Assembly (NCBI RefSeq): GCF_003334305.1
Contig: NZ_QOWS01000035.1
Length of the DNA: 31,024 bases
Reading direction: 5' to 3' (one strand)
Origin: Escherichia coli
Lineage (GTDB): Bacteria; Pseudomonadota; Gammaproteobacteria; Enterobacterales; Enterobacteriaceae
The notes beneath the pieces are model-generated. The model worked only from the letters and a program-made list of their open reading frames with translations. It did not search any database and was not told the DNA's origin. This document shows, in pieces, positions 4,759 through 8,595 of the stretch (position 1 is the first letter of the stretch; each line of letters starts with the position of its first letter). The position numbers were made by a program, and so were the translations under genes.

Positions 4759-6131
4759 CCTTGTGGGTCCTTACGCGTAATATTGACCGGAAGCCAGAGG
4801 GTGAACGTTGAGCCTTTTCCCTCCTGGCTTGCGACCTGAATTGTACCACCGTGTTGTTCAACAATATTATGCACGACCGCCAGCCCCAATCCGGTGCCTT
4901 CGGCTTTGGTGGTGAAGTACGGAGTGAAGATGGCTTCAAGCTGATCTGCCGCAATTCCCTTACCGCTGTCGGTAACGCTGATTTTCACGCCCGCGCCGCT
5001 TTCGCTGACCGTCACGCTAATCACGCCATGCTGACCAATCGCCTGAATAGCATTGAGATAGAGATTCAACAGGACCTGAGTCAGCCTGTCCGGATCGGCC
5101 TGAATTTCCGGTAATGTGTCGTTGGCGGTAAAGCGTAACTGGATCTCCCGGCTGTTTGCATCCTGGCTTACCAGCTGTAATGAGTGGTTAATCAGCGTGT
5201 TGAGATCCACCGCCTGCAAAGCCAGATGCGTTGGCTTAACCAGTTCCAGCAACTCGCTTACCACGCGGTTTAAACGGTCGGCTTCTTTCGCCATCACCTG
5301 CGCCAATTGATGCGCTTCTCCCCCTGCTGGCGCGCGTTCGGCAAAGTATTTCGCCAGTCCTTTAATCGAGGAAAGTGGGTTACGGATTTCGTGGGCAACG
5401 CCTGCCGCAAGATGCCCCAGCGCCACCAGCTTCTCTTTGCGCTTCATTTCATCTTGTAGAAGCTGGCGCGAGCGCAGATAGCGGCGATACCAGAAGAATG
5501 ACAATACGCTTGCCAGCAAGACCGTCGCCAGGGCGAAGAGGATAATCAGGGTGTTTCTCTGCTCACGATCTTCGGCACTCACAATATTACTGGCGTCGAA
5601 AGCGATGAAAATTGCTTGTGGTGTTGCGGCATACTGCTGCATATGGCGCATCCGGTGCATTCCAGCAGCAAACATCGGTTGAAACTGGCGATAAATTTCC
5701 AGAACAGGCTCGCCGTCTGCGCTATCGATCCGCCGCCACGCTTCTTCATCTCCAGGATGTAACTGCTGCATTTCCTGCGGGGAATAAAGCTGTTTTCCCA
5801 CCATGCCGGAGTTGCTATGCATCACGATTGTTCCTTGTTCATCCGTGACCGCAAACCAACGTACTCCAGGCTGCCCGGCCATTTCTTCCAGTAAGGCCTG
5901 CTGCTGCGCATGATGCATGCGCATCCCCATGCCGACGCGCGAGCCGGATTCAAGAGCGCGAATAAGTACACTGCCTTTTTCCAGCAGCGTTTGTCTGGCG
6001 GCGGCAGTCTCGCGCCCATAATCGCGAATCACCGTCACCGCAAACAACCCTACCAGCCCAACAATGACCACGGGGAGGATCGCGCTTAACCATTTAGCTA
6101 AGGAGTCTTTAGAACGTTGCATAAAACGCAT
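4755..6131 (-). CDS. zraS: sensor histidine kinase
   Basis: 458 aa. Two transmembrane segments around a periplasmic domain, H-box (HEIRNPL) and HATPase motifs (DxGxG, GxGLGL). No in-frame start further upstream (stop 14 codons up). Confidence 0.93.
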   Translation of the reverse strand: MRFMQRSKDSLAKWLSAILPVVIVGLVGLFAVTVIRDYGRETAAARQTLLEKGSVLIRALESGSRVGMGMRMHHAQQQALLEEMAGQPGVRWFAVTDEQGTIVMHSNSGMVGKQLYSPQEMQQLHPGDEEAWRRIDSADGEPVLEIYRQFQPMFAAGMHRMRHMQQYAATPQAIFIAFDASNIVSAEDREQRNTLIILFALATVLLASVLSFFWYRRYLRSRQLLQDEMKRKEKLVALGHLAAGVAHEIRNPLSSIKGLAKYFAERAPAGGEAHQLAQVMAKEADRLNRVVSELLELVKPTHLALQAVDLNTLINHSLQLVSQDANSREIQLRFTANDTLPEIQADPDRLTQVLLNLYLNAIQAIGQHGVISVTVSESGAGVKISVTDSGKGIAADQLEAIFTPYFTTKAEGTGLGLAVVHNIVEQHGGTIQVASQEGKGSTFTLWLPVNITRKDPQG

Positions 6132-6162
6132 CTTCTTCTTTGCCTGCTCATCCCTTTCTGAC

Positions 6163-6178
6163 AGCAGAAATCATGCCA
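6163..6178 (-). promoter_or_regulatory. sigma-54 promoter for zraSR
   Basis: Minus strand TGGCAT-gattt-CTGCT with GG/GC spacing of 12, about 30 nt upstream of the zraS ATG. Confidence 0.6.
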
Positions 6179-6229
6179 TCTTTTATCAGCGCTTACCCTG
6201 CGCTGTAACACAAAGGCTTAAGTTTCAAT

Positions 6230-6275
6230 GAGTAAAAATGACTCGCTACCCGCAGCAGGCGAGTCATTTTTACTC
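6230..6275. promoter_or_regulatory. ZraR upstream activator site (perfect inverted repeat)
   Basis: gagtaaaaatgactcgc (6230-6246) and gcgagtcatttttactc (6259-6275) are exact reverse complements separated by 12 bp, lying between two divergent sigma-54 promoters. Confidence 0.75.
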
Positions 6276-6317
6276 GTTTATCATGCCAGATTACCCGTCA
6301 TATCAGCGTTTCATCGT

Positions 6318-6333
6318 TGGCACGGAAGATGCA
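6318..6333 (+). promoter_or_regulatory. sigma-54 promoter for zraP
   Basis: TGGCAC (6318-6323) and TGCA (6330-6333), GG-to-GC spacing 12, about 35 nt upstream of the zraP ATG. Confidence 0.7.
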
Positions 6334-6368
6334 ATACCCGAAGTAAGACAACCACTGGAGGATTAACC

Positions 6369-6794
6369 ATGAAACGGAACACGAAAATTGCCCTGGTAAT
6401 GATGGCGCTTTCAGCAATGGCGATGGGATCGACATCTGCATTTGCTCACGGCGGACACGGTATGTGGCAGCAAAATGCCGCGCCTTTGACCAGCGAACAA
6501 CAGACAGCGTGGCAGAAAATCCATAATGACTTTTACGCTCAAAGCAGCGCACTGCAACAGCAACTGGTGACGAAGCGTTATGAATACAATGCCCTGTTAG
6601 CCGCGAACCCACCGGATAGCAGCAAAATTAACGCGGTCGCCAAAGAGATGGAGAATTTGCGTCAGTCGTTAGATGAGTTACGGGTGAAACGAGATATCGC
6701 GATGGCTGAAGCGGGTATTCCGCGCGGAGCCGGAATGGGCATGGGCTACGGCGGCTGCGGTGGTGGCGGTCATATGGGTATGGGCCACTGGTAA
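6369..6794 (+). CDS. zraP: periplasmic zinc-responsive chaperone (CpxP-like), signal peptide, Gly/His/Met-rich C-terminus
   Basis: Internal ATG at 6369 preceded by SD ggagga at 6355-6360. Product starts MKRNTKIALVMMALSAMAMGSTSAFA (signal peptide). The ORF-track start at 6228 runs through the promoter/UAS and is rejected. Confidence 0.9.
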   Translation: MKRNTKIALVMMALSAMAMGSTSAFAHGGHGMWQQNAAPLTSEQQTAWQKIHNDFYAQSSALQQQLVTKRYEYNALLAANPPDSSKINAVAKEMENLRQSLDELRVKRDIAMAEAGIPRGAGMGMGYGGCGGGGHMGMGHW

Positions 6795-6795
6795 A

Positions 6796-7491
6796 TCAGA
6801 ACGTTTTCTCGTTGGGTTGCCAGCGACAGAAATCAGAGTTTGCCACTAACAGTAATTGCGAACCTTCGGGCGCTTCCAGCCATGCCACGCTGACATCAAC
6901 AGAAGAGCGGCTCTGGCGGCGCTCGATATGCGCTATCGCCTGCGAATCTAAATCAGGTTTAATGGTTTGCCCTTCGCAGGTGGTCACGGTCTGTTCCATC
7001 GCATGCCAGCGCCCCTGGCGCAGCACGACTCTCCCCTGACGTAAGGCATCGCTAATCTGGCGGATCTGATCAGCACGATAACGGTATAAATCGATTTGGT
7101 CGTTAGAAAGCTGCTGCTTTTCCCCATCGGATTCACGTTGCATAAAGCTCAGATCACCGCGATCGTCAAAACGCGCGCGAATGTTCACCGGCGGTTTGCT
7201 GTAAACATTGATATTGATGAGCGTGAGGTTATCGCCCTGCCAGCGATACTCTCGCGTCGTGGTATCGCCACTGCGCCACGGGCTAAACACGGCAAGCAGA
7301 TGCACATTATCGCCGCTGTCTTTTCGCCAGATGCGTACCGCGCCCTGGTCTTCAGCAAATCCACTGGCGGTAAAGGGAGGAAGTGAAGAGTTGTGACTAC
7401 AGGCAGTGAGAAACAGAGCGCCTGCCAGCATCAATGATCGACGCCAGAAAGACAAAAGGGGTGAAACCACCCCTTCGTTAAAACTGTTCAC
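6796..7491 (-). CDS. yjaH: putative lipoprotein of unknown function (YjaH-like)
   Basis: ORF with lipoprotein-type signal (WRRSLMLAGALFLTAC, lipobox LTAC). Start is uncertain: GTG at 7497 or 7491, or ATG at 7431. I chose 7491 because it gives 231 aa, the length I recall for YjaH; no clear SD at any candidate. Confidence 0.7.
   Translation of the reverse strand: MNSFNEGVVSPLLSFWRRSLMLAGALFLTACSHNSSLPPFTASGFAEDQGAVRIWRKDSGDNVHLLAVFSPWRSGDTTTREYRWQGDNLTLININVYSKPPVNIRARFDDRGDLSFMQRESDGEKQQLSNDQIDLYRYRADQIRQISDALRQGRVVLRQGRWHAMEQTVTTCEGQTIKPDLDSQAIAHIERRQSRSSVDVSVAWLEAPEGSQLLLVANSDFCRWQPNEKTF
7444..7476 (-). terminator. intrinsic terminator downstream of hupA
   Basis: Minus strand AGGGGTG-GUUU-CACCCCT hairpin followed by TTTTGTCTTTCT, about 30 nt after the hupA stop. 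Confidence 0.75.
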
Positions 7492-7503
7492 TGCCACGCA
7501 ATC

Positions 7504-7776
7504 TTACTTAACTGCGTCTTTCAGTGCCTTGCCAGAAACAAATGCCGGTACGTTAGCTGCGGCAATTTTGATTTCTTTACCGGTCTGCGGGTTGCGGCCA
7601 GTACGCTCAGCGCGGTGGTTCACTTTGAAGGTACCGAAACCAACCAGTTGTACAGCATCGCCTTCTTTCAGAGACTCAGTAATTGCAGCCAGAGTGGACT
7701 CCAGAGCAGCTTTAGCCTGGGTTTTGGACAGTTCTGCTTTCTCTGCAATTACATCAATCAGTTGAGTCTTGTTCAT
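7504..7776 (-). CDS. hupA: DNA-binding protein HU-alpha
   Basis: 90-aa [17 protein letters not shown]...[12 protein letters not shown], recognised as HU alpha. Confidence 0.97.
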
Positions 7777-7962
7777 AAGTTATCCTTACAATGTGTTTAT
7801 CGCTTGCTAAGCATCGAGTGCGACGGAAATGCCAGAATAGCACTCTCCTGCATACACGCACCGATAGCCACTTTTTTTCGCCCCCCAAATGTAGACCAGA
7901 CGGGGGGCGAAAGGGAAGACTCCAGGTACGACAAATCAGGCGTTAAATCACGTTTTCTGGTC

Positions 7963-8553
7963 TTATTGCTGAAAAATTATACCAATATTGCTCTCACCCG
8001 CCTCACGCAGGTCTGCCCTAAGGCCTTTTATCAGCTCGATATCGCGTTCTTCGCACTCAGCTAAAAGTCGGAATATTTCCCACTGAATGTCCCATTCTTG
8101 CTCTACAGCTGGGTTTTCTTTAAGCTCTTCATCGCTCATTTCGCGACCAGCCTGAGTCATTTCCAGCATCGCAACGGTCGTGATGGAGGTCTTACTCACT
8201 TCCACCGCGTGTTCGAGCGTTTCACCACTCAAACGCGAATGGACCAGTTCACTTAACGCCACGCAGGCATCGATTGCCGGATAAACGCCGTACAGATCGA
8301 AATCGTCGGCTGAAGGAATCGCTTCTTCAAATTTCTCCAGTTGGCTGTCGAAATTTACTTTTGCGTCTTTAACGGTCAGCGTTTCCCAGATGAGATCGAG
8401 AATACGACGGTAAATTTGCCCATCACCAAAACCGGTTTGCTGGCAGAACATGGCGTAATTGGGGTACATGCGTTCGCATAAGCAAGCCATGAAAGTGACA
8501 TGCTGCCAGCTTTCCAGGCGCTCCAGACGCAGATGAATTGGGTTTTGTAACAT
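7963..8553 (-). CDS. yjaG: DUF416-family protein of unknown function (YjaG-like)
   Basis: 196-aa ORF, last gene of the nudC-hemE-nfi-yjaG cluster on the same strand. Confidence 0.85.
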   Translation of the reverse strand: MLQNPIHLRLERLESWQHVTFMACLCERMYPNYAMFCQQTGFGDGQIYRRILDLIWETLTVKDAKVNFDSQLEKFEEAIPSADDFDLYGVYPAIDACVALSELVHSRLSGETLEHAVEVSKTSITTVAMLEMTQAGREMSDEELKENPAVEQEWDIQWEIFRLLAECEERDIELIKGLRADLREAGESNIGIIFQQ

Positions 8554-8595
8554 GTTGAGTTCTCAAATACGGAAATTATCCGCAGTTTACCTGAA

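Follow-up and report, generated by a model that had tools for sequence, protein, structure and literature searches.

In the window analysed here, a stretch of 31,024 nucleotides from Escherichia coli to which all positions refer, the transcription terminator of hupA lies inside the annotated 5' end of the next gene, the lipoprotein gene yjaH. This terminator is real, works in vivo, and ends hupA transcripts intrinsically at position 7452. An in-frame start codon upstream of the terminator hairpin and an open frame across the terminator are conserved in nearly all of the Enterobacterales sampled, and the comparison suggests that a terminator placed within yjaH is a conserved way to make little YjaH from read-through, not an annotation error. 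With somewhat better than even confidence, it can be proposed that yjaH is translated from GTG 7491 and/or GTG 7497 on those transcripts alone that have passed a leaky terminator, probably by ribosomes that reinitiate after hupA; which codon is used, the reinitiation route, and how much read-through occurs are the steps that we infer.

The region corresponds to the E. coli chromosome around zraS, zraP, yjaH, hupA, yjaG, and nfi. A 1.3-kb query from the locus had a match in 5,426 of 5,426 complete E. coli genomes, with a coverage of 80% or more in 5,421. The 126-nt hupA-yjaH junction is at least 95% identical across 5,421 genomes, and within-species variation is uninformative; the lone E. coli junction that is 3 nt shorter was set aside, its assembly flagging both hupA and yjaH as frameshifted. 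The RefSeq/PGAP product name for yjaH is 'DUF1481 domain-containing protein', and Pfam DUF1481 covers residues 44-229 of the longest yjaH open reading frame (ORF), which runs from a GTG at 7497 to 6796 on the minus strand and encodes 233 aa (E = 1e-72). The predicted structure of YjaH is confident (pLDDT 92.8), and a Foldseek comparison of the model with the PDB returned no neighbour (best E = 0.07, TM < 0.25) and no functional lead. Essentially no literature on yjaH or DUF1481 was found, and the RaiZ-hupA paper covers only the hupA 5' UTR. The features of the junction are as follows.

7776-7504, minus strand: hupA (HU-alpha) coding sequence, from the ORF list and RefSeq; stop codon TAA at 7506-7504.
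6796-7491, minus strand: yjaH as annotated (DUF1481 lipoprotein, 231 aa), from the RefSeq/PGAP start GTG 7491 and Pfam DUF1481.
7495-7497, minus strand: GTG, first in-frame candidate start, 6 nt past the hupA stop; 32-residue signal peptide.
7489-7491, minus strand: GTG, RefSeq/PGAP start, about 12-13 nt past hupA; 30-residue signal peptide and Cys31.
7455-7476, minus strand: terminator hairpin GAAGGGGUG-GUUU-CACCCCUUU, from a pattern scan, folding, and pairing over 39 sequences.
7445-7454, minus strand: interrupted U-tract UGUCUUUCUG, from the scan; mapped RNA 3' end at 7452.
7453-7455, minus strand: TTG in the U-tract, candidate start; 18-residue signal peptide MSFWRRSLMLAGALFLTA followed by C.
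7429-7434, minus strand: TTG 7434 and ATG 7431, downstream candidate starts; uncharged 10-residue signal peptide from ATG 7431.
7399-7443, minus strand: signal-peptide core with RR (7443-7438), h-region, and lipobox L-T-A-C (7410-7399), from translation and alignments.

On the minus strand, the longest frame reads GTG (7497) GCA GTG (7491) AAC AGT TTT AAC GAA GGG GTG GTT TCA, continues as CCC CTT TTG (7455) TCT TTC TGG CGT CGA TCA TTG (7434) ATG (7431), and later reaches TGT (7401).

The hairpin consists of a 5' arm at 7476-7468, a 4-nt loop at 7467-7464, and a 3' arm at 7463-7455 (minus strand), with 9 pairs of which 5 are G-C. Folded alone it has an energy of -14.0 kcal/mol, and the U-run that follows it holds four U and then an interrupting G. 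A scan for the terminator consensus is by itself no better than chance (2 sites in 3 kb against 3.5 expected), and an Rfam search of 7200-8000 gave no family at E <= 1. The hairpin is considered real because it lies 27 nt past the hupA stop, because its stem is conserved and covaries, and because a Term-seq end falls at its foot. Over 39 distinct orthologous sequences, 97.7% of the stem positions pair, and the two loop-proximal (top) stem pairs covary as UG/CA, CG/CG, and CU/AG with 8 double-sided changes. None of 500 shuffles scored as high in covariation as the observed alignment, and in slid registers 51-80% of the positions pair.

By Term-seq (Adams et al., eLife 2021, PMC7815308), a strong RNA 3' end was mapped at MG1655 position 4200605, which is +39 of annotated yjaH. 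Supplementary files 1 and 3 list it with 102,752 reads in LB and an intrinsic-terminator score of 5.76; its Rho score, 0.74, marks it as not Rho-dependent. This coordinate equals position 7452 of the window, and the RNA ends in ..CCCCUUUUGU-3'. In the same data, 3'-end-based counts in 800-nt windows were 379 upstream and 401 downstream, counts of a kind that do not gauge read-through (PMC7815308); a termination efficiency for the hupA terminator was found neither in TERMITe nor in the Dar & Sorek supplements. The locus thus combines a G+C-rich hairpin and a U-rich tract with a Rho-independent 3' end in vivo and evolutionary upkeep, as is expected of an intrinsic (Rho-independent) terminator. 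The authors classed the end as 'internal' to yjaH (PMC7815308); it is the primary 3' end of hupA, not a premature termination of yjaH.

These data bear out the preliminary description, which had placed the hupA terminator inside the annotated 5' end of yjaH: the hairpin spans 7476-7455, the Term-seq end is at 7452, and the annotated start is GTG 7491. Its placement of the terminator at codons 'about 6-17' of the longest ORF was close, the exact figures being codons 8-18 of the longest ORF and codons 6-16 of annotated yjaH, and in the long ORF the hairpin translates as E-G-V-V-S-P-L. The candidate starts that it listed (GTG 7497, GTG 7491, and ATG 7431) all exist, but three more in-frame candidates on the minus strand had been overlooked, namely GTG 7470, TTG 7455, and TTG 7434. 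It had also found a convincing Shine-Dalgarno (SD) sequence at none of its starts, and this agrees with the anti-SD duplex energies, which are -1.4 to -1.5 kcal/mol at 7497, 7491, 7434, and 7431 as against -5.9 kcal/mol at the start of hupA itself. The sole SD-like element is AAGGGG (-7.6 kcal/mol), which lies 12 nt upstream of TTG 7455 and is locked in the stem. The two upstream GTGs sit 15-21 nt before the stem, and they form with the hupA stop the close stop and start, with a downstream start that lacks an SD, by which coupled pairs are recognised. Since the candidate GTGs have no SD, reinitiation is the most likely route to them.

It is fair to call the yjaH start ambiguous, as the preliminary description had done, because GTG 7497 and GTG 7491 are indistinguishable and TTG 7455 is also a candidate. 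The RefSeq start at GTG 7491 is probably right, or off by at most two codons. The supplement texts of start-site and N-terminomics papers that were searched do not mention yjaH. A strict promoter scan of 6000-9000 found nothing, and neither the strict nor the relaxed scan gave a promoter-like site between the terminator and the yjaH ORF (7455 to 7431). One weak, E. coli-specific site from the relaxed scan, with the hupA stop plus GAT as its -10 element, was rejected as a general mechanism, the other genera reading TAAGAC there.

Junctions for comparison were taken from Escherichia species, a Klebsiella MAG, and Sodalis, from Salmonella, Citrobacter, and Klebsiella, from Dickeya, Pantoea sp. 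IMH, Proteus, and Morganella, and from 80 metagenomic loci and five more distant loci. The search of genome contigs with a single protein gave matches limited to Escherichia, one Klebsiella MAG, and Sodalis; the query for the metagenome search was an alignment of 10 sequences. The 95 loci reduced to 69 distinct segments, each reaching from the hupA stop to the lipobox Cys; in 64 of them hairpin and ORF are joined without a break, and these 64 junctions fall into 11 clusters with less than 80% identity over 40 nt. A 1-nt insertion in one metagenomic junction (L078) was treated as an error, its contig having a coverage of about 1.2x. The gene order yjaG (DUF416)-hupA-yjaH (DUF1481) persists down to 27-36% YjaH identity.

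In all 64 junctions, and thus in all 11 clusters, an ATG, GTG, or TTG lies before the hairpin in the yjaH frame, which then stays open as far as the lipobox Cys; the same test in the other two frames was passed by 5/64 and 0/64. Shuffles of the upstream bases passed in 0.22-0.39 of trials per cluster; the product over clusters, 1.6e-6, is an upper bound on significance only, since the shared ancestry of the junctions makes it overstate. Among the 64 junctions, the spacer from the hupA stop to the first start ranges from -1 to 11 nt in single-nucleotide (non-triplet) steps, and the length from the start to the Cys changes in triplets only (+3 in L075 and L019, +12 in L025 and L030). The equivalent of GTG 7491, after which an AAC or AAA codon is conserved, is the sole upstream start in Salmonella (L010) and in L096, where the first position reads GTA. 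The first position is the sole upstream start in L029, L049, L073, and Dickeya (L013), and it reads ATG in L013, L050, and L056. It appears from this pattern that the two E. coli GTGs act as interchangeable starts across lineages.

As to the conservation of the early codons, which the preliminary description had proposed as a check, the upstream start and the open frame are kept in 64/64 junctions, and the eight codons before the hairpin carry no coding signature. From the first GTG to the hairpin, the entropy at codon positions 1, 2, and 3 is 0.58/0.71/0.71, with no third-position excess. In the signal-peptide codons it is 0.98/0.69/1.32, which is normal third-position variability, and these codons are less conserved than the upstream stretch. 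The constraint upstream of the hairpin acts on the nucleic acid, not on the peptide, and would suit an initiation region and a hupA 3' UTR equally.

Downstream of the terminator, yjaH encodes a lipoprotein signal. A lipobox of the form [LVI][ASTVI][GAS]C follows a hydrophobic h-region, and its Cys (codon 7401-7399) does not vary in two family alignments, of 26 and 31 members. A twin-arginine (Tat) signal was considered and rejected because the RR is not conserved, the WRR of E. coli being WRH, WRG, WRQ, CRA, RQG, or KGR in orthologues. Under the '+2 rule' for lipoprotein sorting, Ser at +2 of YjaH suggests sorting to the outer membrane. The signal peptide, in which the RR is present, would be 30-32 residues long from GTG 7491 or GTG 7497, 18 from TTG 7455, and 10 from ATG 7431, a typical length being about 15-25. 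In the long form, the first 17 positions hold an acidic residue but none that is basic, and its length of 30-32 residues is atypical but conceivable for a lipoprotein. The preliminary description took the lipoprotein signal to favour a start close before the n-region. The lipobox is indeed present, but only TTG 7455, which had not been listed, fits such a start, and this codon is lost in some lineages.

A start at TTG 7455, as the main or an additional one, is the alternative to be weighed most seriously, and it is assigned a modest probability, well short of even. Here, the 18-residue signal peptide, of typical length and with a charged n-region, would be the true one; the sequence upstream would be hupA 3' UTR, kept in frame by the fixed position of the TTG relative to the hairpin, and read-through would still be needed. 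The absence of codon periodicity upstream of the hairpin fits this reading, and so does the retention of the TTG in 58/64 junctions, with a G at 7453 that is invariant in 39/39 aligned sequences though it interrupts the U-tract. The NCBI-named Morganella proteins (219 aa) begin at the equivalent TTG, and one distant locus described below (L102) shows that the family can manage without an upstream start. The only SD-like sequence lies upstream of this codon, but it is 12 nt away and is paired in a stem of -14 kcal/mol, and TTG is a weak initiator. The codon is also lost in junctions whose yjaH is intact. In five Citrobacter-like junctions and L050 it reads TCG, and in these six the other canonical starts all give signal peptides that are shorter than 12 residues or lack a basic residue; the upstream start is therefore their sole option. 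In L098, at 27% protein identity, it has become TTA in a U-tract UUUUAUUUA, with no other usable downstream start; a GTG lies 6 nt past the hupA stop there, immediately preceded by an in-frame TGA. A start at TTG 7455 would also leave unexplained the open upstream start in 64/64 junctions, the closed state of the other frames, and the changes of the upstream start to ATG.

Several lineages depart from the E. coli layout. In Pantoea sp. IMH (L014), a loop that is 1 nt shorter puts the hairpin out of the yjaH frame, and yjaH begins at a new ATG about 75 nt further on. An ORF of 36 codons that opens at the conserved GTG crosses the terminator, and its TGA overlaps the new yjaH ATG as ATGA, the classic arrangement of translational coupling. 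Judged from its sequence, this layout is as would be expected if ribosomes must pass from the hupA stop through the hairpin to yjaH. L022 and L024 have a strong U-tract, a variable spacer of about 100 nt, and an ATG of their own for yjaH. In L100 the hairpin lacks a U-tract, the spacer is 60 nt long, and a proper SD (GAGGTG) stands 4 nt before a GTG. In L102, an in-frame TAA directly before the hairpin leaves no upstream start, so that yjaH must begin inside or after the hairpin; the 3' arm offers the first start there, an ATG 5 nt past the G-rich arm, and two more ATGs follow just past the U-tract. L019-L021 and Edwardsiella (L101) have the upstream GTG plus an ATG in the loop or 3' arm. These exceptions imply that the initiation site shifted around the hairpin during evolution. 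The upstream start is the rule in Enterobacteriaceae, Dickeya, Sodalis, and Morganellaceae, but it is not universal.

Returning to initiation at the upstream GTGs on read-through transcripts, the expression of yjaH can be potentially described as follows. No yjaH start or promoter would avoid the hupA terminator. The majority of hupA transcripts would stop at 7452 and supply abundant monocistronic HU-alpha mRNA, and a minority of polymerases would pass the imperfect U-tract UUUUGUCUUUCU. Transcription of yjaH would come from read-through only, because no promoter-like sequence follows the hairpin and because, given an upstream start, no promoter could get round the terminator. Ribosomes fresh from HU-alpha may then reinitiate at GTG 7491 and/or GTG 7497, 6-12 nt past the stop, and would translate the hairpin as a long, unconstrained n-region M(AV)NSFNEGVVSPLLSF, after which come WRR, the h-region, and Cys31 of the lipobox. 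Signal peptidase II would strip the whole hairpin-encoded n-region together with the signal peptide. The pro-lipoprotein is predicted to begin with fMet-NSFNEGVVSPLLSFWR from an upstream start and with fMet-SFWR from TTG 7455. A fixed low ratio of YjaH to HU-alpha would result, given by the leakage of the terminator multiplied by the efficiency of reinitiation.

This scheme draws its support from the conserved open upstream start, the substitution of one GTG for the other, the triplet-only length changes, the junctions that lack the TTG, and the leader ORF of Pantoea, and also from the lack of an SD at the candidate starts, whereas a yjaH that is detached from the hairpin can have one (L100). 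On the other side, the upstream GTGs could be passengers of a conserved element of the hupA 3' UTR that shows no coding periodicity, and the atypical signal peptide, the retention of TTG 7455 in 58/64 junctions, the missing upstream start of L102, and the several ATGs in the loop or 3' arm point away from it. A start upstream of the hairpin needs read-through whatever the promoter. The argument in the preliminary description that initiation at 7497 or 7491 together with efficient termination would imply a separate promoter therefore has a gap. It had left open either dependence on read-through or a true start downstream; the comparison favours read-through, and the downstream start that it named, ATG 7431, is confined to Escherichia.

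A more elaborate form of the scheme is doubtful. Across Enterobacterales the hairpin might be a dual-use module, at once the stop of one RNA and the translated 5' end of yjaH, and in some lineages a ribosome-binding site as well. YjaH would then be tied both to read-through and to the ribosomes that leave HU-alpha, and read-through might respond to how close these ribosomes keep behind the polymerase. This would amount to a pyrBI-like attenuator made from the signal peptide of a real protein, so that an envelope lipoprotein would be linked to a nucleoid protein's output.

That the locus works as an active attenuator like those of pyrBI or rph-pyrE is less probable still. According to this proposal, a reinitiating ribosome close behind the polymerase covers the 5' arm and suppresses termination, so that yjaH transcription would report the tightness of the coupling between translation and transcription on hupA. 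An ORF that passes through the terminator hairpin is the defining geometry of pyrL, it is order-wide here (64/64 junctions), and in Pantoea sp. IMH it persists as a leader ORF of its own, 36 codons long and ending on the start of yjaH. Of the features of a pyrBI-type attenuator, however, the overlap of ORF and hairpin is present and the far-upstream leader start is absent. With a start 15-21 nt before the hairpin and termination about 40 nt from the start, very little time would be left for ribosome loading if general rates apply; the hupA stop, 27 nt from the stem, is too far away for a terminating ribosome to melt the hairpin. The detached ORFs of L022, L024, and L100, as well as L102, manage without this geometry, and a pause or sensing element was not found in the locus.

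The weakest proposal is a start at ATG 7431 or TTG 7434 served by its own promoter past the terminator, the annotated 5' end being a longest-ORF artefact of gene callers; it is very improbable, for although ATG is the strongest start codon, yjaH would escape the terminator, some gene callers choose this ATG (P0083, 210 aa), and the filter of the Term-seq authors implies a mapped transcription start at most 200 nt upstream of the 3' end (PMC7815308), such a start would lie upstream of the terminator and not past it, no promoter-like site exists between 7455 and 7431, the ATG is found only in Escherichia (8/64 distinct junctions; Thr, Leu, or Ala in other genera, with no start there in Salmonella, Klebsiella, and Citrobacter), its 10-residue signal peptide has no basic n-region, and it has no SD (-1.5 kcal/mol) and is paired, like TTG 7434, in a local E. 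coli hairpin at 7447-7425.

The annotation question is probably settled in favour of the existing start, and nothing is overturned; an ordinary mechanism appears here in an unusually compact and conserved form. The device places a terminator within the sequence-tolerant n-region of a signal peptide, and with one promoter it would yield one protein in tens of thousands of copies and its neighbour in very few. The start calls of DUF1481 proteins vary among genera, some being placed before the hairpin, some within it, and others in the U-tract, and they could be made consistent. Deletions or tags of hupA that change the terminator or the stop codon will probably alter the expression of YjaH.

Among known systems, the operon rpsU-dnaG-rpoD has an operon-internal partial intrinsic terminator between rpsU and dnaG, and its neighbouring genes are expressed unequally. 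The hupA-yjaH pair resembles it in having a strong upstream gene, a hairpin and U-tract that stop most transcripts, and a weak downstream gene that needs read-through. It differs in that the terminator of rpsU-dnaG is intergenic and is followed by a ribosome-binding site for the downstream gene, whereas that of hupA lies inside the yjaH frame and no SD is present. The pyrL leader is a dedicated peptide begun far upstream of its attenuator, and UTP is sensed there through polymerase pausing. As in pyrL-pyrBI and rph-pyrE, in the latter of which the upstream ORF is a real gene, a translated ORF enters or crosses an intrinsic terminator in hupA-yjaH. Unlike pyrL, the ORF that crosses the hairpin is the signal peptide of the functional protein itself and starts 15-21 nt before the stem; a separate pyrL-like leader ORF occurs, among the lineages sampled, only in Pantoea sp. 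IMH. The junction is also like termination-reinitiation pairs in its short stop-to-start distance (6-12 nt in E. coli, -1 to 11 nt over the lineages) and its lack of an SD, but GTG starts with a strong hairpin 15 nt downstream are uncommon in such pairs.

The same site is listed with its intrinsic score in the catalogue of Adams et al. (PMC7815308) as an ORF-internal 3' end, a class that is treated there as candidate premature termination or small RNAs, and the main text of that paper contains neither 'misannotated' nor 'mis-annotated'. Partial internal terminators, translational coupling, and the Term-seq listing of this site are already known; what is new is the interpretation of the site and its conservation.

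Around the junction of hupA and yjaH, both transcribed on the minus strand, two further elements are predicted in the E. coli sequence.

7501-7530, minus strand: weak promoter-like site (-35 AAGGCA, 18-nt spacer, -10 TAAGAT)
7425-7447, minus strand: second predicted hairpin in the E. coli folding, with many G-U pairs

The -10 element TAAGAT consists of the hupA stop codon followed by GAT, and TAAGAC is found at this position in other genera; a transcription start is predicted from this site near 7494. The filter used by the Term-seq authors (PMC7815308) implies a mapped transcription start 21-200 nt upstream of the RNA 3' end at 7452. Within the U-tract of the hupA terminator, the interrupting G at 7453 (column 45 of the alignment of orthologous hupA-yjaH junctions) is invariant in all 39 sequences, and it occurs in TTG as well as TCG contexts. 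Two candidate yjaH starts, TTG 7434 and ATG 7431, are both paired within the hairpin at 7425-7447, the sequence of which is not conserved in other genera.

An E. coli-like yjaH variant of 211 aa (P0005), representing 50 member sequences from ENA assemblies, starts with MRCYRNLLPAC.. instead of ..WRRSLMLAGALFLTAC; it could be a signal-peptide allele with a frameshift, or else an assembly artefact that recurs. The AlphaFold2 model of mature YjaH (window 6796-7398) is confident (mean pLDDT 92.8) and for the most part beta, with two long helices. A Foldseek search of the PDB with this model returned no neighbour (best E = 0.07, TM < 0.25); as modelled, DUF1481 is a fold without a solved relative in that search.

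One more hairpin was noted upstream of hupA, and additional RNA 3' ends within hupA and its 5' UTR.

~7872-7912, minus strand, yjaG-hupA gap: 12-bp G+C-rich hairpin UUUCGCCCCCC...GGGGGGCGAAA, then A7
MG1655 4200389 and 4200251/4200253: additional RNA 3' ends, hupA coding region / 5' UTR (Term-seq, PMC7815308)

The hairpin has a predicted energy of -29.8 kcal/mol (z = -3.8), and the stretch immediately 3' of it is conserved in distant loci. For a canonical terminator the U/A tracts lie on the wrong side, whichever direction is read. The further hupA 3' ends in the Term-seq tables are of low abundance. Separately, HU-alpha carries a Lys/Ala-rich C-terminal tail in two distant lineages.

L099 599-898: HU-alpha, 99 aa, tail ..KAVKAPKAKK*
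L102 160-471: HU-alpha, 103 aa, tail ..PKPAAKAKK*

At its other end, yjaH converges with zraP.

6796, minus strand: last base of the yjaH stop, convergent with the zraP stop
6794, plus strand: last base of the zraP stop, convergent with the yjaH stop

Since only 1 nt separates the two stops (window 6794-6796), there is no space for terminators between them, and PMC12288877 includes yjaH/zraP in its list as a convergent 'excludon'.
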